From a virus (taxonomy: Duplodnaviria; Caudoviricetes): a stretch of 64,000 nt of DNA. The notes below the pieces were generated by a model that worked only from the letters and a program-made list of their open reading frames with translations, was not told the DNA's origin and made no database searches. Position numbers and translations under genes: made by a program. Every line of letters begins with the position of its first letter. Positions within the stretch are counted from its first letter, which is position 1. Shown here piece by piece: positions 4,365 through 62,000 of the stretch. The DNA lies in the IMG/VR virus record IMGVR_UViG_3300014039_000012, positions 105,442 through 169,441 of that record; one strand, 5' to 3'.

Positions 4365-5315
4365 TTCAATTCTGCGCACGCATATTGTATGGCAATAGAT
4401 AGTCTTTCTTGTGCAATGCTGAAAGCAAATTATCCATATGAATTTTATGAGGTGCTTCTACAATTCCATTCCGATAGAGGAGAAAAAGACAAGGTTGGAG
4501 CCCTAAAAGCGGAAATGAAAAAAGCTTTTAGTATTCAAGAAGGTCCGTATCGATTTGGAGAAGATAACCGCAAATTCAACGCAATTCCGGAAAGAGGAAT
4601 TATCCAACCGTCTCTTTTGTCAATTAAGGGACTGAGCCAAGATTTGGCAAATGATCTTTATGAACTTTCGCAAACTAAAAAGTTTGATAATTTTATAGAT
4701 CTGTTAAGAGAATTCGATCATATGAAATCGATGAACATTGCGAAGTTGGATACGTTGATTAAACTCAACTATTTCTCTCAATTCGCCCCCATCGGAAAAC
4801 TTCTGAACATCGTTGAACTCTATAACAAGTTCGGAACTCGTAAGACACTCAAAGAATCCGACGTTTCCGCCCTCCCCGCGCCCGTTCAGGAAGTTATCGC
4901 AAAATATACCACCAAGCCCAAAACGCAGTATAAAATCACGGATAACGATGGAATGCTTCGTGAGCTTGCAGAAATGGTCGGAGAACGTCCGATTACAATG
5001 ATGATGCGTTTGTCGTGGGAAAAGGATTATTTGGGTTACTGCGCCTCTACCGATCCGTCACAGCAAGGAAGTTGGCTCGTTCTGGATATCGATACGAAGT
5101 TCTCTCCGAAGTTGAGCATATATTCTATCTGGAGTGGAGAACAGCGTATCGTTAAAGTCTCGAAGCGTGACTTCCAATCAAATCCTCTCGCTAAAGGTGA
5201 TACAATCCGTCTCACCATTGAACAACGTCCGAAGACAAAGCTCGTGGACGGACAATGGGTAAAAGACGAAAGCGTTAAAGAAGATTGGCTAAAATATTAT
5301 TCAATTGTAAAATAA
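4365..5315 (+). CDS. dnaE: DnaE exon 3 (HhH and C-terminal region)
   Basis: FNSAHAY...LKANYPYEFY...SIKGL. The spliced precursor is 1534 aa, or 1095 aa after intein removal. Confidence 0.92.
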   Translation, partial: FNSAHAYCMAIDSLSCAMLKANYPYEFYEVLLQFHSDRGEKDKVGALKAEMKKAFSIQEGPYRFGEDNRKFNAIPERGIIQPSLLSIKGLSQDLANDLYELSQTKKFDNFIDLLREFDHMKSMNIAKLDTLIKLNYFSQFAPIGKLLNIVELYNKFGTRKTLKESDVSALPAPVQEVIAKYTTKPKTQYKITDNDGMLRELAEMVGERPITMMMRLSWEKDYLGYCASTDPSQQGSWLVLDIDTKFSPKLSIYSIWSGEQRIVKVSKRDFQSNPLAKGDTIRLTIEQRPKTKLVDGQWVKDESVKEDWLKYYSIVK

Positions 5316-5326
5316 GGAGAAGATTT

Positions 5327-5623
5327 ATGGCAAAATATATTGATGCGGACAAAATCGAGTATAAGATAATTTCTTATCCGCGTTTTGATTTTTCTACGGG
5401 AATGGTTCGCAATGAAAAACTCGATGGTTTTTACGCCATCAAACAAGATATCGATGCTATGCCTGTCGCAGACGTTCAGGAAGTCAGGCACGGAAAGTGG
5501 GATGAAATCAGAGACGGATATGGAAAACTTGAAGGTTGGATTCATAGAGAGTGCGGACGTATGTCGATGGGAAAAGATAAGTACTGCCCAAAGTGCGGTG
5601 CAAGGATGAACTTGGAGGATTAA
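5327..5623 (+). CDS. Small phage zinc-ribbon protein
   Basis: SD aggag before ATG 5327; YIDAD...HGKW...YCPKCGARM pattern. Confidence 0.75.
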   Translation: MAKYIDADKIEYKIISYPRFDFSTGMVRNEKLDGFYAIKQDIDAMPVADVQEVRHGKWDEIRDGYGKLEGWIHRECGRMSMGKDKYCPKCGARMNLED

Positions 5624-5624
5624 A

Positions 5625-5897
5625 ATGGATAATTATATTGATAGAAACGTCCTTTTGCAAGAATTAAACGAAGCGCAGATAGAAGGCGACGAATACTATA
5701 AAGGACTTGGAAAAGCAAAACTAATTTTATGCGAGCAACCCGATGTCGACGTAGAAGAAGCCAAGCATGGGAAATGGCTTCCATACAGATTTGGTCTGGG
5801 AGTAGTGAAGTGCTCAATTTGTGGAGCGGTATATGAAGGGGGAGACTCGTTCAGGTTTTGCCCGAAGTGCGGTGCGAAAATGAATTTGGAGGATTAA
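5625..5897 (+). CDS. Small phage zinc-ribbon protein (paralog of the previous gene)
   Basis: HGKW, CSICG and FCPKCGAKM motifs; same C-terminal MNLED. Confidence 0.75.
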   Translation: MDNYIDRNVLLQELNEAQIEGDEYYKGLGKAKLILCEQPDVDVEEAKHGKWLPYRFGLGVVKCSICGAVYEGGDSFRFCPKCGAKMNLED

Positions 5898-45260: not shown

Positions 45261-45664
45261 TTATCGATGAAGTTCGATAAAAGCAAGGACGAGACACAGA
45301 AGCACAACAATACCAAAAGCGCTCATTTCATCACCTCCTTTCAATTGAAGATATACTCGACGCACCCCGGGTCCAGCTTAATACCCAGCCAAATCGAGAA
45401 GATGAACAAAAGAATTACAATAATGACGACAAATATTCCTCCGCTATCTTTCATCTCTTTCATAGATCCTTTCGACAATAGCCACAGAACCAACAATGTT
45501 ATCAAGCTTTCATCACCTCCTTTCTACTTCGAAAAGTAGAACATCAGAAAGAAATAAACAGCTAATATAACCCAAGTTGCAATAGCTTCAATCTTGTTGC
45601 ACATTTCTTTAGAGTCTTTCCAGCATCGTCGGATTACCAGTCCGAGAATCAGTAAAAGTATCAC
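45261..45664 (-). CDS. Three tandem small hydrophobic peptides (45524-45664, 46 aa; 45341-45505, 54 aa; 45261-45326, 21 aa)
   Basis: Each has an AGGAGG SD and a TM-like stretch; all are below the ORF-track cutoff. Confidence 0.5.
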
Positions 45665-45703
45665 ATAATTGTCCTCCTTTTATTTATTAACAAATGATGA
45701 ACA

Positions 45704-46102
45704 TTATTCATCATCAGTTTCCTCGTCATCCTCCTCGCTCCAACTGTCAATTTCTTCCTGAATCTTGTCGTTCTCAAAAGACTTTTCGCAATCAACGACT
45801 TCTCTTGCAATGTCTCCGGGGTAAATCCAATCAGTCGGGTCGTTGGTCGATTCGAAGTTGCCGTAGCCGTTGAAATGGAAATAGTCGTGATTCGGATTGA
45901 AATCTCCATAAACGATGCTACGAGCAATTTCGCTCGGGGTCATTCCTTCGCAGATCTCGTCGAATCTCTCCATTTCAATGATTTCGTCATCGTAGTCATT
46001 CGTCTCGTAGCAATATTCGTTGTGGAGTGCTACTGCATCCGAATCGTCCATATCCTCGATAATGTCGCGAATTGCTTCAACCTTTTCTTTGTAAGTTTTC
46101 AT
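45704..46102 (-). CDS. Highly acidic hypothetical protein
   Basis: D/E-rich 132 aa protein with a strong SD. Confidence 0.7.
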   Translation of the reverse strand: MKTYKEKVEAIRDIIEDMDDSDAVALHNEYCYETNDYDDEIIEMERFDEICEGMTPSEIARSIVYGDFNPNHDYFHFNGYGNFESTNDPTDWIYPGDIAREVVDCEKSFENDKIQEEIDSWSEEDDEETDDE

Positions 46103-47203
46103 AGTTTTGTTCTCCTTTCCGTTTTCAATATTTTTTTGTTTATTTTGGTTAGTTGGTTTGTTTTGTTAATTGGCTGGTTAAATTATTTAATGCTGTCTTT
46201 GTGAATTGCATAGGTCCAATAAGCGATGTTGACATCCTTATCGATATACCGGCCATAAAGAAAGAAAGCCCGATAAATCGCATAGTCGTCTTGGTCCTTG
46301 TAAAGTTCGACGGAAACACACAATCCGCGATATTTGTCTTTTTCTCCAATCCTTGGAAGATCCGAAAGCGAATCAACAACCTTCGCGTTCCCGACCCATT
46401 CGCGAATTTCCTCAAGTGTTCCGTTTTTGTCGGTGCAGTTACGAATATAATTTTCAAAAGAATAATTATATTCATCTGGTTGCTCTCTCTGAAGGTGCTT
46501 GAATGTTCTCAGAAGTTCCTCCTCTGTGACAATGATGTCAAACTCTAAATCTCTAAACTTTCTCATTTTAGATTTCCTCCTTTAAAATATTTTTTGCCTC
46601 TTCAATTGCCAAAAGGCACTCTTTATTTCTTCTGGCATAATTCAAATGCCAAACCACAATAATGTCATTGTGCTCACTCAAGATAACCGTGGCAGCAACC
46701 TCACCTTCTTCGTTTTCGTCATCTGTTTTCCAAACATCAATTGTAATACCTGCTTTGATTCCATTTTTTAATTCCTCAAAGCAATAGTCGTTTCTCACTT
46801 CTGCAAACATTTTCATAATTCTTTCCTTTCTCCCCGCTTATGGTCAGATAGGACAACCAATTGTTAATTTTTTGTTAATGATTGAAATATAATTTTTGTT
46901 CAATTCTTTGCATCGGATAAATCCGATTTTCATCAAACGGATAAACAATTTCATTGACGTTATCGTCTTCGTCTACGATTGTCAAGCAATCATAACTTTC
47001 AACTTCAACGAGAACTGCTGTCTCTTCTGCGAAGAACCACCAATTATTATCAATAATATTGATAATCTTTTCGGCTTTCTCGCTGCTGTCGAGCTTTTCA
47101 GCGATGTATTGTTGAAGTTCATTGCGTTTATTATCGAAATCCGTCCAGTTGTCAGGCACTTTGATGATTTCTGTTTTTAATTGTTCTCTGTACGTCATGA
47201 TAT

Positions 47204-47737
47204 TTACTCCTTCGGTTTTGCAATTACCCATGTTTTATTATGTAAAATTGATTGTATAGTTGTTGCTCCAACTCCATATTTTCTTGCCAATGCTCTTCCA
47301 CCAAAGATTGGATCTCTTGGAATGTATGTTTCCAATATATCATTCACATCTTGTCTTGTTAATTTGTGGCTACCATTTTTTTCCCCATAACTTATACCAT
47401 TGGGAAGTTTCAAACCTGTATCAAACGCATGCTTAATGTTTTGAGACTTCGTTACCCATTCAAGATTTTCAACAAAATTATTTTCCTTATTTCCATCTTT
47501 GTGGTTAATTTCAGGAAATCCATTCGGATTTTCAATAAAAGCCATCGCAACAAGTCTATGAACCTTAAAATTTTTCATTGTTCCATTTTTACAAAGTTTA
47601 ACATTCATATATCCATATCTGTCTTTATCAAGATGTAGTATTTTCTCGTTTTTACTTTTCAGTGATTTAATTTGTCCAAAATTTGATACCTGATATTCTT
47701 CATATCCACCTTCTATTTGTTTCCATATTTCTTCCAT
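47204..47737 (-). CDS. NUMOD4-HNH endonuclease
   Basis: EIWKQI.G...YQVSNFG, VHRLVAMAF and INHKDGNKENN.VENLEW motifs. Confidence 0.9.
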   Translation of the reverse strand: MEEIWKQIEGGYEEYQVSNFGQIKSLKSKNEKILHLDKDRYGYMNVKLCKNGTMKNFKVHRLVAMAFIENPNGFPEINHKDGNKENNFVENLEWVTKSQNIKHAFDTGLKLPNGISYGEKNGSHKLTRQDVNDILETYIPRDPIFGGRALARKYGVGATTIQSILHNKTWVIAKPKE

Positions 47738-48422
47738 GTAGTTCTCCTTTAATTTATTGCCGGTAGGACAGCATAATTGTTAAAATTTTGTTAATTCAGA
47801 ACGGCAATGTGTCGCGACTCAAATGCAGATCAAGCCAGTCATAGGTCTTCGGAAAGTGGTCCATCATCCAAGCCCAGAAATGCCTTCTTCTTCTGCGTTC
47901 TCTCCGAGTCTCAATTGCACTTCGCTTTTGCTTCTTCATACTTTTCCCTCCTTTCTCAATTCGCTAAAATTCTTCATCGTCGTATATTTCCAACCGTCGC
48001 AGTCGGTCATATACCAAATGATAACTGGGTTGTTATCCTTGTCGAGTGCCACTCCCTTGAACTGTAAATCCAAGTCGTCATTACTCCTTGCGTCAACGTT
48101 GGTGTTCCAGATTGCAGCATATTCTCCGCTCGAAGTGTAAGGAAGTCCGTAGGTCAGTTCGACGTTCCTCTCACGCTTTCCGTGAACAATCCGCAGACTT
48201 TTGTCGAGCCATTTCACTGCCGCAAGGGCAATCTTGTACTGTCTTTCGTAGTCGGTCCATTCTTTTACTTCATTCGGGTAAAGCTCCATCGATGTCGTTT
48301 GGGTGTTCTTAATGTTTTCCATATCAGAAATCCTTTCTCCGGTTTTATCGAGGTTCTCCGGAAACTCAATATTTTAATTTTATATAATCAGGATAAAATC
48401 CTGTAATTTTCGAGTATTTATT

Positions 48423-49355
48423 TTAGTACGGATAACTTTTAAATGCTTCGTCTTTGTCGTGTTGTATATCGTTACTTAAATCTCTAAATCGTGTATATTT
48501 CTTGTTCGGGTTTATTTTGAAAAACGAAAGCAAATCGCTATAATACCATTCCGACATCGACTCGGAACAATAATGTTCAAGGACTTCTTTTTCATCAATT
48601 GGTTCTTCGCAATGTTCTTGAACAATCTTCAACATATTATCTTCTTCGGTCTTTTGTTTTTCTCTTGAACGTTTTGATCTTTCTTCTTCTTTAGCCTGTT
48701 CTACTTCGTGCTTCCAATATTCGTATTTTTCTCTGTCGTCAATAATAGAGGAGATTTGTTCTTTAGACAATCCTGTGATCTTTTGAATCTCCGGATATTT
48801 TGTTCTTTTTCGATATAGTTGAACGACCTTGATCTTTATCTCTGCGGTAGCAGGGGGAGAAACCGCGCCAGCGGTCTGGGAAGGTTCGTCAGAACCACCC
48901 CTCTCGATCTCTGTCTCCTTCTCCTTCTCTCTATCTTTATCTATATCTTTTTCTTTATCTATATCATGGTTTTGACCCTTTTGACCCATTTTATTATATC
49001 GTTTTAAAGCGCATCGAATTGAGTCTTCTGTCAACCCCATTTTAGAAGCGATATCTTTAATCGAATCTCCATTTTCTTTCAGGCGATAAATCTCATCATA
49101 ATCCAATTCTTTTGGTCGTCCGCCCTTCTTTCCAGCTTCAACCGCTTTTCGATATTTCTCTTGTGCGGATTGAACATTCGGAAGACAACTGCCTTTTATC
49201 CAGCCAAGAATTAAGTCATTTTCTGTTTTGATTTCTCCTCGAATCGATAAATATACTAACGCATAAATCGCTTCTTTAGCGAAATCAGTTCCCATCATTT
49301 TCTCAAACGCATCAATTGTTTCGAGCCAGCTCTCGTAAAATACCATATTTGCCAT
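48423..49355 (-). CDS. DUF6291-like N-terminal domain plus HTH; replication-protein-like
   Basis: MVFYESW...AGKKGGRP, an HTH-like SIKDIASKMG segment and a DIDKEKDIDKD linker. Confidence 0.55.
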   Translation of the reverse strand: MANMVFYESWLETIDAFEKMMGTDFAKEAIYALVYLSIRGEIKTENDLILGWIKGSCLPNVQSAQEKYRKAVEAGKKGGRPKELDYDEIYRLKENGDSIKDIASKMGLTEDSIRCALKRYNKMGQKGQNHDIDKEKDIDKDREKEKETEIERGGSDEPSQTAGAVSPPATAEIKIKVVQLYRKRTKYPEIQKITGLSKEQISSIIDDREKYEYWKHEVEQAKEEERSKRSREKQKTEEDNMLKIVQEHCEEPIDEKEVLEHYCSESMSEWYYSDLLSFFKINPNKKYTRFRDLSNDIQHDKDEAFKSYPY

Positions 49356-49537
49356 ACTTTAATCTCCTTTTAAAATGAATTTTTCTTTTAATTAATTTTA
49401 ATATTTTGTTCATAATTGAACTCCTTTGATTAGAATCTGTGAATTTCTATAAAAGCCAGAACTAATATCAATAATACCAAGATGCCAAAAGGTGACATAT
49501 ATTTTACCTCCAATCTTCTAAAATATCTATATAAAAA

Positions 49538-49561
49538 GGAGACTGGATTTCTCCAGCCTCC
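49538..49561 (-). terminator. Intrinsic terminator on the minus strand
   Basis: Minus strand reads ggaggctgga-gaaa-tccagtctcc-ttttt. Confidence 0.7.
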
Positions 49562-51951
49562 TTGAATTTTAATAATTTGTTAATAATTTAATTGTCAGAG
49601 CTCGACCTTTTTTCCTCTACCGCAAATTCTTGCAAACGGGCAATAGAAAGACAGATAGCTATTCAAGTGTCTCCCAACCTGTTTGTTATCCCAGAGCACA
49701 AACATATATTCGAGGGCATTTGCAACAGACCAGAAATCACATCCGTCTTTAATTGCATAGATTCCGGATTTAAGAAGTTGTTTTAAAAACTCTTTCTCAT
49801 AATGCGTTGCGGGCGCGACAAAGTCACTTTCATTTTCGGGGCGAACCCAAACTTCATCAGAAAACATATTCGCAAGTTTATTAACAATTTCTTGATCGAT
49901 AGAGCTTTCTTCGTTTGCGTAGGTTTCGAAGAGATACTTCTGTTCTGCGGTTTTGTAAGTAGTAAGCATAGTTTTAATCCTTTCTGCCGTTTTGTAAGAG
50001 GTTTGCGGTGACTCTAATTTTTAAATTTTAATAATTTGTTAATAATTTAATATGTGAAATCGACGAAGACCGGAGTGTCTTTCTTCAACATCCGTTCGTA
50101 GCTGATATCGTCCCGTCTTCCGCAGGAGTATTTCTTTTCGGAGCGATCGTAGTCGCCCTTCTCATAGACCTGCGAATCTTTCGGATTGGCAATCGGTTTC
50201 AAGGTGAACCAATCACCTTTCTTTAATGCTCCGAGAGTCAAGACAAAGTTCGGATTCTTTTCAACCCGGTGTTTGATTCGGAATGTTGTCTGCGGGCAAT
50301 TTTCGCGATATTCTTTTAGCGTCTTTTTGGCTTCCGCGAGAGTGTATTCAGAGCATTCAACGCTCCATTCGTTCCCGTAGAATCCTTCGATGTCATAACG
50401 GTCGATGGTCTTTCTGGTGTCGATAGTGGTTGTGGTTTTCATAGTATTTCTCCCTTTTAATAATTTGTTAATATTTTAATTACCAATTTGTTCTCATGCA
50501 TTCGTCCAACCAAACAACCCGATGTCCCCAACGGAAACCAGTTCTTCCGTCGTTGTTGGTGAAGACTTTTGATTTTTTCGGAGTTTCTTTCGTTCCGGCG
50601 ATTTCGACAAAGTAGACAATTTCTTCCGATTCATCGATCTCGCAAATTTCCAATCCAAGTCCAGCAAGTCCTCCGTAGTAGGTCGCAATAGGGTCTTTCC
50701 CTTCGATGTGATTTTTGATTTCGGTTTTGGTGATTCTCATAGCTTTATTCTCCTTTTTTAATTGTTTTGTTTATTTCTTTCTCATAGACAAAAGAACAAG
50801 CGCCTCAACTTCTTCTTCTGAAACGCCCTCGAGTTTATTCATATAATCGCAGCGTTCCTTTGCCATTTCAGCAGTCGGATAGAAGTTAAGAGGCCAATAT
50901 CCATATTCACCTTTCATAACATAGATTGCAGCAGTCGGATCACTCGGAAGTGTCGTGTAAGCGCATTCGGGGAGATTTTCGGGATGCTCAAGCAACTCCA
51001 TAAGTTTTTGTTTATTCATAATATTTTTCCTTTCTGGCCGTATATGTCCGATACCGCAGACAAATTTTTAATTTAGCAAATCACGAACCAAAGCTTCTTG
51101 TAGTTCTGTTCACAAAATTCAACATTGCTTAATTTATTTTTGTTAAAATCAGGATATGAAGGATCGTTATAAATTGTTCCATCGGGACTAAGACAGGAAA
51201 TCCAATCTTGATATTTTTCGCATTCAGCAGCGTCTTTTTCATCGATAGTATAAGTAACGAAGTTTCCATAACCATTGTAATTAGAAACATAAATATGTTC
51301 GTCGTTATAATAAAGATCGTGACCTCTCTTGACAAAGTCGAGCATTTTCTTCGCGTTTTCAAAAGTAGCAAAATTTTTCATAGCATTTCCCTTCTCTCCG
51401 TATAACGCCGTTAGGTCAGCGTAATTTAATTATTGATTACTGAATGGTTTCGCGCATTTCCTCAATCTGCTCTTCGGTAAAGCACCGATGAAGTTTCTCA
51501 TTCTGCGCAAGACAAGCCTTCCAAATCTTCCGAGCTTTCGTGCGTTCGGACCCGGGCGTGTTGTCATATCCGTATTCCGAGCAAAACTCCTCGAAATCGT
51601 CATCCGCATAGCTGTCTCCTCCGAGGCAAGTCAAAATGTCATAAGCTGTCGGTTCTGCTTCCGCAATCTTTTCAGGGTCTTTCGATTGGAGCTTTTCCTT
51701 GTTTGCGATAGAATCCCAGAAAATTCCCCACATATGTCCGAGAGGGGTTTTGATGTCGTAACGGTAACGAGGGCGCAGAACTGAGTCCCAATTGGTATTT
51801 GCTGCGAGCCCAGTGTAAGTGAATTTCACGGTGATGTTGTGCTTCTTGCAGAAATTGTCGGCGATTTCGGTGTAGGTTGAGTGTCTCATAATATTTCCTT
51901 TCTTTTGCGATGGTATTATGCCGCCACCGCACGGCAAATTGATTTTGTTAA

Positions 51952-51967
51952 TGTTTCACGTGAAACA
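51952..51967. promoter_or_regulatory. parS: parS site (ParB/Spo0J-binding palindrome)
   Basis: Perfect TGTTTCACGTGAAACA, intergenic. Confidence 0.85.
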
Positions 51968-54900
51968 ATTTAGCCCTTGATTTCTTTCAGATAGTCTTTC
52001 CAGAGGGCGTCGGTCACTCCATATACGTTATGGATTGAATCGCAGCTGTTCGTTCTGCGTTCGTCAATATAGAACTTCCAAATATTTGTGAACGGAATTT
52101 CGATATCTTTGTCGCAACTGATGTCAAGCACGGAACCGCTTCCATCCCATGGGTTAAATAGTCCGCAGGTTGTTCTCTTGTCAAGAACAATCGAACCGTT
52201 AGGATTGGACTTCATCTTTTCCTTCAGCTCGATTGCCTGTCCGAGCGTCATTTTTACGCAGAAAGTTAGTGCTTCGCAGCCGTAACCGTTGTCAATTTCT
52301 TGCTGAACAGTTTCGAGGAATGTTTTCGGTCTCTCAACGGGGTCTTTCTTTAAGATTTCAACAACTTCTTCGAAAGTATACCCTTGTTGTTTTGCCAACC
52401 AGACAAGCCCAGCTTTTTCAGCATTTTCATCGACTTTTCCATCTTCATCAACGATATGCTCATTTAGCCAGAAGTCATAATTGTCATCGCCATTTGAAAC
52501 AACGATGTTAAAACAGAACTCCTGCGACAGAGCCCAGTCTTCCGGGTAGTCGACACAGACGACATCCATAAATGCTTCTCGAATGTCCTCGTGTTCAAAG
52601 AGTTTTGATTCGATCTTTTCTTCGAAACCATCAACAATGTTGTCGGTGATATCCCATTCCTGCTCTTGATATCCATCCCAAAGCTTTTCAATCAGAATGT
52701 CTCGAGGAGAGTCATCCTCAAGGATTTCCTGCGCGGTTGAGTCGTCAATTTTATCTCGATAATCGGTGTAAATTTCGAAATGATAATTTCCGTCTTTCTG
52801 TTTTGCATAGCCGTAGTTTTCTGCGAGAAATTCCTTTACGAGTTCATTAATGTCTTTCATAGTATTTTCCTTTCTGCGGTTTTGAAGAGGTTTTCCGCAA
52901 ACTCTAATTTTTAATTTGTTTTAGTGATTAACCAAACAGAACTTCTCCAAAAAGCGAGAATTGAACAATGATGTCGGCAACTTCCGAATCAATCTGACAA
53001 CAATTGAGCTGCCACTCTCCGAATCCATCTCCTTCGGGGACGAACCAGTTGTAATGAGAATAATAACCTTCTTCAATTGCTTTTCGAATTCCGATGAAAA
53101 GCTTCTCGAGAGAGAGTAAATAATTTTTACCATTTTCGATATCTGTAACTTCCAGTTCTTTTCCATCAAAAAGAATTTGTGCGAAAATCTCTTCAAAGCA
53201 GACATCTTTCAAGTCTGCTCCTTGTTCGACAAGATGTTTCTTCGCTTCGGAGTAGTCGTTGTCGTTAGCGGAAACGGCCGCCCAGTATCCAACCCCGCCA
53301 TTTACGGCGGAGCAGACAATATCCAAAACATCTTCTTTTGTGATTTTAACTTGAATTGTCGGTTTCAGAATTGCGCAAGTTTTATTCCATTTCAATTCCA
53401 TATTAGAACACCACCTTTTCAATAATTTCGATTTCGTAACGATCTTCGGACCAGAATCCTTCCTGATAAACGGAGAAGTAATATTCGCCTTCATCGACAA
53501 CTTTATTGTCAAGTTCCATCAAATGGTCATTTGCCTTCTCGTCGGCGACACATTCATCGAAATAGGCTTTTGCCTTTTCGCGCGTTGAGAAAACTTTCAT
53601 TTCGGTGTCGGTTGAACCGTCAATTGTCGCATCAACTTTAACAATGTAAACGAAAGTCGGCTTATTCTCTTCTGAATTGAAAATCTTGTCGGCAAGGTCA
53701 CTTGCCTTCGCGTCTTCGGGATCGTCATCATCGAGAATGCGCATATCTCCAGTTGAAATTCCACATTCTTGACATTGGTAATCGATCGCATCTTTTGCGT
53801 AATCGATCGTTCCTTTGTCCATCTCGATTGCACGGTCGTCCTCCACGAACAGTTCAGCCAAAATTCTTCTTTCCATAGTATATACCTTTCTTCGGTTTTG
53901 TTGAGGTTTGCCGAAAACTCATAATTTTTAGTTGGTGGTTTTGTGATTATGATTAATCGATATTGTCGAACACTGCTGTCGCAATTGCCTGTTTGGAATT
54001 TCCGGTTACGCAAACTCCACGGCTCAACCGGTCGAGAGAGTCGAGGAAGAAGACATATTCTTCTCCATTTGTGTAAACAACATAGGTGCATCCATACCAA
54101 CCGCTGTTAGAGTTAGCAACGGCCGGAGAAAGAAACATCTCGACATATGCGCTCTTGTCGAGTTGGGATTTATTCATTTCGTGCCAAGTAGCGCGGACGT
54201 AGCCCTTTTCCTCAAGTTCGCGGGGGTAAACTTTGTTCTGTTTCATATTTATTTCCTTTCTGCTCGTTTAATGGTCGAATCGCCCAACCAATTTGATTAA
54301 TTAATACTTTCGATGTGTGCGGGAACGAAACGGAACCGAGTGTATCTCGGATATTCCAGATAATTGTCGAATTCCTGTGCCGTCATTCTACCGATGAGAC
54401 TTTCCATCTGATTTCTGTAGAACGGACCTGCGAGAAAATAGAAGCATTTGCTTTCGATTTCCCTTCCGGTTTCCTCATCGAAATAGATGAAAAGTTTCGC
54501 AGAATGTTTCAAACCATCATCATAGTAGAATCCGATGTCTTCGATTCTGCGAATTTTGTCAATGTCGTGGATGTTCGAGTTCATTTCATTTCACCTCCTT
54601 TTTATCTAAAGACGGAATATATTGAAAAGCGATGTTATACATCTTCATTCCAGTAATTTGGTCTCTGAATGTTTGAACGTAGATTCCACCTTTAAGATTA
54701 TTGTCATATCCGTTGTCGTTCGCCCATTCTGTGATAATCTGTGTTGTCAGTGTATTGACATAAACGTAGAGGTCTGAATAATAATGATGAATATCTTCGG
54801 GTGGATAACCAGCCTCGAGAAGACGTTCCATAAGCGATTTGGTGTTCATTTCAATTCTCCTTTTAAAAATAATTCTTGTTTGTACCGTCGAGTTTTTCCA

Positions 54901-57126: not shown

Positions 57127-57541
57127 TCTGTCTTTCTCCTTATTTATTCAGCCCCGGATTGTTGGTCCGAGGCTGTTGTTTTTTGTTAGTCTTCTTCTTG
57201 TTGTTTGGAATTAAATATAGAAATTGCCGTCCATTCATCGCAATGATATTTATCACAAATTTCTTTTATTACTTCTTCTCCAGAAAGGTTTCCACTTCCA
57301 TTCAAACTGAACAAGCAACATTGCGAAATTAATGCTCTCTTAATAGTTTCTGAAATGTCTTTAATTTTCACTAACTCTTCTTGTGCTTTTTCTAGTTTTG
57401 TTATTTTAATAAGATAAATAATTGCAAAAATAAGAGAAGCGACTGAAATTATTATTCCAACAAAACTCAAAATGATTGTAAAACATAATGTTGCGTTTTC
57501 CATCTTTTCCTTTCTAGACCCCGGATTTCTCCGAGGTCCAA

Positions 57542-59038: not shown

Positions 59039-59067
59039 ATTATATCATATTTTTCTCAAAATGTCAA
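59039..59067 (-). promoter_or_regulatory. Sigma-A promoter for the R-M operon
   Basis: Minus strand reads TTGACA (59067-59062), 17 bp spacer, TGaTATAAT. Confidence 0.8.
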
Positions 59068-62000
59068 GAGAAATCGGTGAATTTCTCAAACTTTTTCAAT
59101 GTCTTTTCGACTAACGTACCAAAAACCATCTCCGACTGTTGTTCCTTCCGGCCATCTGATGTGATACGGGGCAACGTCGTGCTCGATTCCGATAACTACT
59201 CCGACTGTTCCTTTTGGCGGGAAGTACCCCGATTCTTTGATGTCTTCAGTGTCTTCGGTGATATATCGAACCTTGTCTCCGATTTCAATGTCGTTGTCTC
59301 CAAATTCTTCTTCGAGACATTTGCGACAATCATCCGTGCAATTCGTCGTTGTTTTTGCGAGTTCGCAATACTTTGCCATTTCTTTTCTCCTTTCTAACCG
59401 CCAATGCGGTCATAATATCTTTCGACGAATGATGCCGGAGAGAGTTCTCCAAGCATCAACATTCTAACAAGTCCATCGATTTGAACCTCCGTTTCGCAGG
59501 ACATCAGAATTTTATGTGTCCAATGCCGGAAATCGTGGAGTTTGTTCCGTGTTTCCTTCTCATTCACGATGCTGTCAGGAGAGAAAATCTCCATCTCCGA
59601 CAATACGCGAATCTTCTCGTCCACATACTGCCTTTTTGTGATTTCATCTCCCCAGAAGTTTGTAAAGACAATCTTCTTCTTTGCCACTTCAGTTTACCTC
59701 CTCACTTTTGGCAATGGTTTTGATAAGACGAATGCAAGTGTTTCTGGTTGCTCCGCCTTTACCCTTGAAGGATGAAATGTTCTCGATCATCTCCTCATAT
59801 TCACCACTGTAGTAGTGATCCAGTAACTTCTCCCAGTTCTCGACTCCGCCCATTGTGGCTTTGTGTCTTGCGTGGAAGAGCCTGCGGAGAAGTTCGTCCC
59901 GTGCTGTTTCAACGGGATTCTTGTCGTACTCGTAGATGTTGACGGTGCTGTTGTTGATGGTGAATTTTGCGTTTTTCATAACGCTCCTTTCTGCGCTTTA
60001 CCCTGCGCGACGGGTAATTTCACCTCTGGTGTTTGAGGCGAGAGTGATGAAACACTCTATGGAGTATTAGAACCGAAGCTCTAATACTCGAAGAATGTTT
60101 ATCGACCGTAGCGGTCTTTGCCCTGTCCGGAGAAGTCAAGGATGTTTGCATCGACGAAGGTGTCGGACTTTCCAGTGATGATGAAGCGGATGTAGTCCGC
60201 AAGACGAGAGAGAAATTTCTTCATTGTTCACACCTCCTTTCTATTAATATCTTTGTGCGAGGTCTTCGAAGTCTCTCATATCGGCATCGAAACAAGCGTT
60301 ATCGTAATCGATGTCTTCTTGGGAGATGTATTCCTCATCTTCCTTCGGAATGACGTCTTCGAGCTTGACTTCCGGACGATGCATCCACGCTTCTGCGCGG
60401 CAAATGGTATTATTCCAGATAACGCCGACCTTGCAAGGACCGAAGTCGATCTTGGTGATGAGATCAAGTCCGCACTTTGCGTTGGAGCTATAGATGTTGT
60501 GCTCTTCCATACGCCAAGAAGCAAGTTCGGGGTGCTTGAAGTTGCAAATCTGCTGTTTTGTAGCAGTAATTGTTCCGTTGATGTTGGATTGGATGAACCA
60601 ACCTTTACGGACAAGGTCGAAAGCAGATACTGTCGAGGTGGTCAGGGTACGAGTGATGATTGCGGTTTTCATAACAAAATCCTTTCTGGGCGTTTTGCCC
60701 TTCGTGTTTATTTTGGGACACGAAACCCATAATTTTTTAGTGTTTTTAACGTGGTTATCGCTTCCACACAAAGAGAAAGAATTACTTCTTTCTCTTATCT
60801 GCTTCCTCCTGTTTGATTGCAAGAGCATCGCGAATCGCGACGTCCTGTTCTCTCGCTTGAGAAAGCTCAAACGAGACATCAATCATCTCATTTGATTTTT
60901 CGAGTTCCCGAATCTTCAGGAAATTTTCTTTCGAGAGCTTCCGAAGTTCGGAAAGACTATACATAGTATAGTCAGCCATTCTATTCACCTCCTTTCTGTG
61001 AAATGGCAATGAAAAAGTAAGCGAAATAACATAAAGACCGAATTTACATTATAACACTTACTTTTCATTTCAAAATATTATATATGGCATCTTGTCTCAC
61101 ATAAAAAGTCCAGAACTCCCATATTTATCCTTTTCCTCTTAACTTCTTCATAACTTCCGCTAAAATTATAATCCACTCATCTCTACAATACATTATCATA
61201 TCCGACTTGCTCATTCCTCATATCTCCCATGTCTCCTTGTCTCCTCTCGCTCCCCATAATTATACCATCCATCCATTTCCTCAATATTGCCCACCTCTAA
61301 ATAATCTGTAAACTTCTCACTCCTCTTCTCTCCCGTTAAATTCCCTCTGCCTTTCATCGTCGTATCTTCGCCCACAAAACCACTCTCTCGCTCACTATTA
61401 TTCTCATGAAATTCCACGATTCCTCACACCCTATCCTTACCCATCCAACTCAAACATTTTCTCCACGCCTTATTAAAATAAAGGAAAATCGACCCAAAAT
61501 CAGTACTCCCACCGTAGACCTCCTAACCCCGTTACCGCACTCTATTCTCACCACATCTCTATAATTCTTCCCCTCATCTCAAAACCAAATCCGCACCAAA
61601 ACTATCTAAAAACCAATACTTTTCGAGCAAATTTCCAACGACCTTATTCTTTCACTCGATAATTTTCCGACCCCGACAAAACATATCGTTTCATCTTATT
61701 CTAAAATCTCGTCCAACTTTTCACGAAATCACCCAAACCCGTCGATTTCGACAACTTTAAAACACGTCATCTGTTCTAAATCGTTTCTCCATCACTGCCC
61801 ACCAAACACATAAAAAAGAGCCGGTCTTTCAACCGACTCTAAAACATTATTCTTATCCTCCACAAAACGTCTTTTACAATTACGGCAGATTATACCCTAC
61901 CGGGGGTATTTTCAGGGTACCGGTTCAAATTTATACCCGGTCGGGGTTAGCTAGGCTTTCTACTAATTTTTCCGCGCATTCTAAGATCATTATCTTCGAG

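Follow-up and report, generated by a model that had tools for sequence, protein, structure and literature searches.

A repeated pseudoknot flush with the ribosome sites of unrelated genes in large human-gut phages

Four leader pseudoknots in a gut phage genome

The stretch of DNA analysed here, 64,000 nucleotides long and called the window below (positions 105,442 to 169,441 of IMG/VR virus record IMGVR_UViG_3300014039_000012), is the final 64 kb of the 169,441-bp genome of an uncultured gut phage. On its minus strand we found four copies of a leader element of about 36 nt, each ending directly at the Shine-Dalgarno (SD) sequence of a different gene. The pattern used for minus-strand elements, GAGT-N7/8-AACCTC-N3/4-AAAAC-N4-GAAAGG, matched the window exactly four times, always on the minus strand, and had no match in 100 dinucleotide shuffles; a search of the whole 169,441-bp genome returned no further copies outside the window. 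The original prediction, made from the letters of the window, had listed four minus-strand copies, and its coordinates agree with ours to within 1 nt. Copy 1 (53885..53921, pattern match 53885-53920) reads U GAG UU UUCGG CAAAC CUC A ACAAAA CCGAA GAAAGG and scores 61.6 bits with R1, a covariance model built on the second stem of the element; it precedes the ATG at 53876 of a 157-aa gene (53403..53876). Copy 2 (52869..52905, match 52869-52904; A GAG UU UGCGG AAAAC CUC U UCAAAA CCGCA GAAAGG; 64.2 bits) precedes the ATG at 52860 of a 296-aa gene (51970..52860; phrog_23767), copy 3 (49979..50015, match 49979-50014; A GAG UC ACCG CAAAC CUC U UACAAAA CGGC A GAAAGG; 23.8 bits) precedes a 124-aa gene (49595..49969), and copy 4 (48332..48369, match 48332-48367; UU GAG UU UCCGG AGAAC CUC GA UAAAA CCGGA GAAAGG; 62.6 bits) precedes the ATG at 48322 of a 128-aa gene (47936..48322). 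The distance from the end of the copy to the ATG is 8-9 nt in every case. All four genes lie on the minus strand and are of unknown function: no Pfam family was found in the four proteins, and the PHROGs they matched were of unknown function only.

Read 5' to 3', the element begins with N-GAG, the first strand of stem 1 (3-5 bp), followed by UU and by U-N-C-G-G, the first strand of stem 2 (4-5 bp). Two variable bases and A-A-C lead to CUC-N', which closes stem 1; zero to three variable bases and AAAA then lead to C-C-G-N-A, which closes stem 2 and runs into GAAAGG without a gap. The junction before the 3' strand of stem 1 is 4-5 nt long and ends in A-C, or in A-U in one subtype. Positions 13, 14 and 21-23 vary freely, whereas four features are invariant or nearly so: the UU, the A-pyrimidine that precedes the second strand of stem 1, the run of four adenines and the seamless join to GAAAGG. 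Three or four of the 4-5 pairs of stem 2 are G-C, and GAAAGG lies outside it, with just the A before GAAAGG paired. In this arrangement the A-rich loop (..AAAA) should be placed in the minor groove of stem 1. Two copies depart slightly from the plan: stem 1 of copy 4 can be extended to 5 bp, and stem 2 of copy 3 is weakened to three pairs and an A.C mismatch (ACCG/CGGC, which is GCCG/CGGC in most relatives). The AGAAAGG at the 3' edge is complementary to the extreme 3' tail of 16S rRNA ending ...CCUCCUUUCU; the sole bacterial bin linked to any copy has the 16S 3' end GGATCACCTCCTTTCTA. Nested minimum-free-energy folding gave the elements ordinary energies (z -0.6 to -0.9), which is uninformative because nested folding is blind to pseudoknots.

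Covariation in related phages carries the case for this fold. When viral contigs were scanned with the core pattern, the element appeared in seven large contigs of one gut metagenome and in one unrelated 68-kb contig. A further scan, of metagenome contigs, gave at least 118 loci. Those loci, the loci of the first scan and the window together yielded at least 56 element-like matches, which after parsing were at least 50 distinct sequences, and R1 matched related contigs of human-gut phages at least 75 times, about 50 of the sequences being distinct. Two loci, L019 and L044, lack stem 2 pairing and resemble chance matches; L019, from Acidobacteriota, was rejected as a true element on this account and is probably a chance match. 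We aligned 37 main-subtype copies without gaps and counted pairs for the structure (((((..[[[[[.....))))).....]]]]]. Across 25 distinct sequences, standard pairs occupied 93% of cells, and the covariation score was 0.27 against 0.115 in shuffled alignments, a value reached by 0 of 500 shuffles. Sliding the 3' partners by 1-3 columns lowered pairing to 17-56%. Stem 2 pair 9-31 occurs as C-G (11), G-C (6), U-A (4) and U.G (2), stem 2 pair 10-30 as C-G (22), U-A (2) and U.G (1), and stem 1 pair 2-21, which flanks the invariant GAG/CUC, as U.G (10), A-U (7) and U-A (7), all of these counts coming from few paralogous lineages and thus reflecting a small number of independent changes. Without pairing, it would be difficult to account for wobble intermediates and for a single position with three Watson-Crick types. 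Because many of the pairs are U.G, and would be A.C mismatches on the other strand, the structure can be placed on the sense RNA.

Within the window the pattern is already visible. As had been proposed, stem 2 covaries there (UCCGG/CCGGA, UGCGG/CCGCA and UUCGG/CCGAA, with the weakened ACCG/CGGC in the copy at 50014), and stem 1 is constant in that all window copies keep GAG/CUC, although the flanking pair already covaries (A-U, U-A, U.G). Further subtypes extend this to the core. With R1 we found a short-loop subtype (CUC-UAAAA-CCGG) and a register-shifted subtype (GAGUC-GCCG...CGGC), to which copy 3 belongs. In a subtype that we call type 6 the stem 1 core is GGG/CCC, GGG/CCU or AGG/CCU, and in a GA subtype stem 1 is GAGG/CCUC; because of these two subtypes, all pairs of stem 1 vary with compensation except the closing G-C. 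The central proposal of the original prediction, a repeated cis-acting H-type pseudoknot abutting the SD, is thus supported by covariation in both stems, by G.U pairs on the sense strand and by the GGG/CCC, AGG/CCU and GAGG/CCUC variants. Judged by this comparative evidence, the element is a genuine RNA motif that folds as an H-type pseudoknot.

Each copy stands in a larger cassette. Directly 5' of it on the minus strand lies a conserved, AAATTAAAAATTA-like A/T spacer (52906..52917, and also 53922-53934, 50016-50027 and 48370-48388), which is part of the repeated cassette. We considered this spacer as a phage promoter used genome-wide and rejected it, as its near-matches are scattered, mostly coding and share no common downstream feature. 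Copies 1-3 belong to a unit headed by a host-type promoter (59039..59067, minus strand; consensus TTGACA-17-TGnTATAAT) and closed, just 3' of the copy 3 gene, by a strong intrinsic terminator with a 12-bp stem and a T run (49536..49563, minus strand). The description of the downstream genes as early genes was not substantiated; those of copies 1-3 sit between this host-type promoter (59067-59039) and terminator (49563-49536). Across window positions 45600-53960 on the minus strand, a G-poor tract of A, T and C (ATTAACAAATTATTAAAA, AAATTAAAAATTA or the like) directly follows the stop codon in nearly every intergenic spacer; these tracts may be a processing or standby site and are not a genome-wide motif. 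The sole protein of the block with a recognisable domain is a 310-aa protein (48423-49355, minus strand) that has a homeodomain-like helix-turn-helix (HTH_23/HTH_28) and a long low-complexity stretch rich in K, D and E.

The same layout in unrelated leaders, and gene cassettes

Other leaders place a different sequence in the same layout. The original prediction had named two such sites on the minus strand, and both are present, at 51906..51936 and 59986..60016. The first reads UGCCG-UGCGGUGG-CGGCA-UAAUA-CCAUCGCA, and its entire hairpin loop pairs with CCAUCGCA just 5' of the SD; this 8-bp loop-to-tail helix has three independent G.U-compatible changes in relatives. Because the loops would be of zero length, the two helices at this site more probably alternate than coexist. 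The second is an H-type pseudoknot, UACCC guc GCGC a GGGUA aa GCGC a GAAAGG, whose stem 2 changes from GCGC/GCGC to GCAC/GUGC in L013, one compensatory G-C to A-U change. A third unrelated example lies at 60681..60728 on the minus strand (GGG u UUCGUG u CCC AAAAUAAA CACGAA, hairpin GGGC-AAAAC-GCCC, AGAAAGG). A looser second leader family precedes the minus-strand genes that start at 51381, 51019, 47737 and 46816. It has a covarying hairpin of 4-6 bp with a loop like UGnCCUAnCG; a linker (UAUAC or UAAAC) follows, and just before the SD stand 2-3 bases, G or C, that complement the loop (CC/GG in three leaders, GG/CC in one), which makes it a weak pseudoknot of the same layout.

We also asked how often such structures occur across whole genomes. 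With a descriptor for H-type knots that end 0-2 nt 5' of an SD, we found 10 leaders (p<=0.025) against 3.7 expected in this genome, and 4 against 1.5 expected in C24, the 68-kb contig described below. With both genomes pooled, a strong abutting helix was found at 12 of 43 AGAAAG(G/U) sites compared with 10 of 161 core GGAG sites (odds ratio 5.8, p=2.5e-4). The link between SD type and abutting helix appears at stringent thresholds only, being absent at a looser helix threshold, and we regard the association as suggestive. Plain G+C-rich hairpins of 9-10 bp also end 0-4 nt before AGAAAG(G/U), in the window leaders at 57503 and 57126 and at genome positions 83222 and 130386 (plus strand), one of them directly downstream of a TGaTATAAT promoter; here the same design, a structure flush with the SD, is realized by a simple hairpin.

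The layout recurs beyond this clade. C24 (G001:C24, MOYD01000024.1) is a phage-like contig of 68 kb and 34% GC that was binned with a Gastranaerophilales metagenome-assembled genome, and it carries about 30 near-consensus sigma-70 promoters (TTGACN-17-TGnTATAAT). Several of these have a knot about 6-12 nt downstream of their predicted start, and the knots are quite different in sequence: GAGG-a-GCGG-aaaa-CCUC-acuaaaa-CCGC-AGAAAGG; AGGG-aauaa-GAAAUC-a-CCCU-aaaaac-GAUUUC-u-AGAAAG, which has two paralogues with GAAAAUC/GAUUUUC and GGAAAC/GUUUCC; and GGGG...GUAGCG-gaug-CCCC-aguaaagaa-CGCUAC-AGAAUGGAG. In L119, a metagenome contig, a GA form stands right behind a TATAAT box at the same distance from the predicted start. 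Going by the predicted starts, the knots of C24 and L119 would lie at the very 5' end of primary transcripts. Given these leaders, the layout recurs by convergence or deep divergence. Downstream of many C24 promoters the initial transcribed sequence is conserved and rich in purines (ATATATAGAAGGTAAGGGAAAGAG; L023-L026). The cluster of promoters and pseudoknots on C24 is adjoined by dense arrays of short direct repeats (L018 at about 4500-5800, on both strands, and L011 at 1380-1570), with GTTGAAAAGTTGAAAAC-like units and about ten of AGCTCAAAA(C/T)TAT; these are possible iterons or an origin.

Searches for the element in bacteria gave little. R1 run across 151 Gastranaerophilales genomes, G001 included, returned only the C24 contig and a false match inside an integrase-like open reading frame. 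The element was not found upstream of bacterial metabolic genes, the genome scan giving the phage contig and one probable chance match. A distant blastn search of the block against the phage GenBank collection had no match.

Comparison of gene order revealed that the element is portable. The UGCGG subtype precedes a gene beginning 'MSAIK...' in most relatives and the 296-aa 'MKDIN...' gene in the window, where copy 2 is fused directly to it; in relatives that gene follows a different element subtype. The same subtype therefore precedes different genes in different phages. When the block was compared by blast with five relatives (L013, L010, L097, L136 and L083), homology repeatedly ended at window position 52858, just past the ATG after copy 2, and started at 48388, just before copy 4 (window segments 52858-52917 and 48329-48388). 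Window positions 52917-52858 align to both the type 2 and the type 6 elements of L013 and L136 (regions L013 2480-3038 and L136 8302-8859), and between those two elements the relatives carry a gene of about 130 aa that is absent from the window. The missing gene looks like the outcome of recombination between paralogous elements. The elements, beyond what had been predicted, are breakpoints of gene-cassette insertions and deletions between related phages; since homology breaks exactly at them, we infer that they also serve as recombination junctions for gene cassettes.

Candidate functions of the leader

Three functions had been put forward with the original prediction: a block to 5'-3' exonucleases, an enhancer that recruits ribosomes and a site for a translational regulator. 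Among these, the sequence comparisons lean towards a constitutive leader that would both protect the message and present the SD. We tentatively favour, with a probability of roughly 40%, a portable leader in which AGAAAGG is free while the RNA on its 5' side has no single-stranded part. In the 5' leader of individual accessory genes the knot would act constitutively and without a ligand. It would pair the nucleotides that border the SD on its 5' side with the loop of a hairpin further upstream and tuck the A-rich linker into a groove, and everything between the A/U-rich spacer (or the 5' end of the transcript) and the ribosome site would be folded away. No single-stranded landing site would then be left for ribonucleases that depend on a 5' end or seek A/U-rich RNA (RNase J, Y, E). 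AGAAAGG would stay free to pair with the extreme 3' tail of 16S rRNA, and because the SD used pairs with the very end of that rRNA, stem 2 may in addition provide a stacking platform for the SD-antiSD helix. Element, A/T spacer and ribosome site would together form a self-contained expression cassette that works before any gene, and its repeated copies would provide homology for recombination that inserts, deletes or swaps accessory genes.

A constitutive rather than a switching role is favoured because stem 2 is mostly G-C, the SD lies outside it and the junction nucleotides vary. We prefer a physical role without a ligand because those nucleotides differ between subtypes that stand side by side (C or U at the junction, U or G after stem 1) and because unrelated sequences share the layout. 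Several points weigh against this account. Copies 1-3 lie inside a long operon, where protection needs an assumed upstream cleavage. A plain hairpin could protect as well, which leaves the need for a pseudoknot a matter of argument. The ordinary nested energies and a stem 1 of 3-5 bp suggest that the knot may be marginal or dynamic, and the association of SD type with an abutting helix counts paralogous copies as independent. Finally, a conserved UU, A-pyrimidine and AAAA amid varying neighbours are also expected of a site for a ligand or a protein.

The last point bears on an alternative that we consider unlikely, an operator for a phage-encoded translational regulator, in which an RNA-binding protein would read the loops of the knot and shut four to seven genes off or on as a regulon. 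Such regulation has precedents: T4 RegA regulates many early mRNAs, and ribosomal proteins S15 and S4 act on pseudoknotted leaders. The four copies here, and five or more in relatives, precede unrelated genes and directly abut the SD, and the unpaired UU, A-pyrimidine and AAAA are invariant while positions 13, 14 and 23 vary, as an operator would predict. We found no candidate RNA-binding protein, however, as the proteins of the block match no such family, and one protein could not read all of the other leaders of the block and of C24, which share the layout with different sequences.

A second alternative, which we hold to be decidedly unlikely, is a riboswitch that senses a ligand and whose fold descends from, or has converged on, that of class I preQ1; a guanine-like base (adenine-like in the U subtype) would dock between the stems, stabilize stem 1 and alter access to the ribosome site. 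The resemblance, which the original prediction had not raised, is close. The class I preQ1 pocket comprises the P1-closing G-C, a U or UU after the 5' strand of P1, A-C or U-C immediately 5' of the second P1 strand, in which the C pairs with the ligand, and 4-5 adenines before P2 (PMC11625349, PMC10622847). Like the class I riboswitch (RF00522; types I-III), the element is an H-type pseudoknot of about 35 nt in a 5' leader, with an A-rich third loop running up to stem 2 and a ribosome site at its 3' edge; in the element both helices covary and the third loop ends in invariant AAAA. All of the reviewed pocket features are present in every window copy, including the 4-5 nt junction, which is absent from ordinary H-type knots. 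The 'specificity' C and the U after stem 1 occur in all window copies and in most relatives. The GA subtype, which has a G in place of that U, fills the pocket with its own G (GAGG/CCUC). The minimum-energy fold of two copies extends stem 2 by U-A and U.G into the AGA of the SD; because in the absence of stem 1 the UU is able to lengthen stem 2 as far as the first bases of the SD, a ligand-controlled version may be an ON switch.

Against a riboswitch, the PreQ1 covariance model (gathering score 39 bits) gave no match at the four copies and at most 10.4 bits anywhere in the genome, the best match being the unrelated leader at 60681-60728 and below noise, and a search of 68 nt around copy 4 at E<=10 did not list PreQ1. 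In class I riboswitches stem 2 is weak, depends on the ligand and buries part of the SD, whereas the element has a strong stem 2 of 4-5 pairs, a stem 1 of 3-5 bp and an SD that lies outside. Type 6, which sits in the same gene blocks, has U in place of the 'specificity' C. Class I riboswitches accompany genes for the synthesis or transport of queuosine or 7-deazaguanines, whereas the element stands in several copies before genes that are unrelated to one another and of unknown function and, in the genome scan and the 151 Gastranaerophilales genomes, was not upstream of bacterial metabolic genes. No TGT/DpdA, QueC, FolE or QueD was found in the phage genome, where the sole signal was a sub-threshold PTPS match of 12 bits inside a 453-aa frame. 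On the strength of the Rfam score, the strong stem 2 with a free SD, the U of type 6 and a gene context of unknown function without 7-deazaguanine genes, we did not assign the element to class I preQ1. A new riboswitch-like or protein-responsive switch built on this fold, in which a guanine-like base (adenine-like in the U subtype) or a phage factor at the stem junction would turn on translation of accessory genes, appears improbable to us; if it existed, a phage without a pathway for the ligand would hold a ligand-controlled regulon of anti-host genes.

The weakest alternative is a DNA-level signal, either a promoter read by a virion RNA polymerase of the phage itself or a mere recombination hotspot with the RNA fold as a by-product, which would fit the conserved A/T motif before every copy and the homology breakpoints at the elements, but we judge it very improbable, as compensatory changes keep pairing and not sequence, ten distinct sequences keep U.G in stem 1 and several in stem 2 (A.C mismatches in the other strand or in a DNA hairpin), the element of C24 and L119 lies inside the transcript downstream of a consensus sigma-70 promoter, and the A/T motif does not behave as a genome-wide promoter-like signal.

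Relation to known systems

Structured leaders on many unrelated phage genes have, to our knowledge, been little studied outside T4 and T7, and almost nothing is available for large uncultured gut phages. The element matches no catalogued Rfam family: scans of the window, a 13.5-kb block, a 68-nt slice and the C24 leaders, both at gathering thresholds and with permissive settings, gave noise only. One of the matches, to Clostridium-PBP RNA (22.5 bits against a gathering score of 94), was rejected because it merely mirrors the layout of promoter, hairpin and SD. The motif is without an Rfam family and is present in multiple copies per genome in a clade of large human-gut phages.

Two kinds of pseudoknot outside this clade invite comparison. 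In exonuclease-resistant RNAs (xrRNAs) of flaviviruses and plant viruses, a larger three-way junction or stem-loop contains a ring that encircles the 5' end of the same RNA. The element resembles them as a compact pseudoknotted fold proposed to stop a 5'-3' exonuclease; it matched none of the Rfam xrRNA families. In the activator pseudoknot of the repZ/repA mRNAs of IncI-alpha and IncB plasmids, as here, the loop of a hairpin pairs with the bases that adjoin the ribosome site on its 5' side, and the knot promotes rather than blocks translation, as the element would. The plasmid knot can form only once an inhibitory hairpin has been opened by translation of a leader peptide, and an antisense RNA targets it; it is present in single copy and is unrelated in sequence to the element. 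It was reportedly described by Asano and Mizobuchi in 1998 and by Praszkier and Pittard in 2002.

A comparison in proposed function can be made with the 5' stabilizers of Bacillus type (the aprE 5' stem-loop, cryIIIA STAB-SD and ermC), in which occlusion of the 5' end together with a strong SD protects the message (PMC3997798). Features in common would be a leader structure close to the 5' end, as predicted in C24 and L119, a strong SD able to pair with the tail of 16S rRNA, and portability. The known stabilizers are simple hairpins, SD-like sequences or stalled ribosomes, however, and none is a conserved pseudoknot family; the window copies are internal to an operon.

The cassette behaviour has its counterpart in the PeSL (promoter-early stem-loop) cassettes of T4-like phages, where recombination between copies accounts for the insertions, deletions and replacements that distinguish related phages (Arbiol et al. 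2010, PMC2839356; PMC4122927). Those, too, are short repeated regulatory cassettes, lying among the non-essential ORFans of a hyperplastic region, and as with PeSL the element is a repeated intergenic cassette whose copies bound insertions, deletions and replacements. A PeSL consists of a sigma-70 early promoter and a terminator hairpin and acts on transcription, whereas the element cassette consists of an A/T spacer, a pseudoknot and a ribosome site and would act on the mRNA; neither a promoter consensus nor a T-run was found at the four copies. Recombination-prone regulatory cassettes of T4-like phages would in this way extend to another phage group, in a translational instead of a transcriptional form.

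With about 50 distinct natural variants carrying compensatory changes, the element is ready for probing and reporter work, and as a compact, portable ribosome-site module of 36 nt it could serve as an insulator or stabilizer in engineered constructs. The smallest riboswitch fold known, that of class I preQ1, would also appear in an apparently ligand-free structural role, which bears on the origins of aptamers. Set among these systems, the element is a variant of SD-adjacent leader structures and of mobile regulatory cassettes, with a preQ1-I-like fold and without membership of the preQ1-I class.

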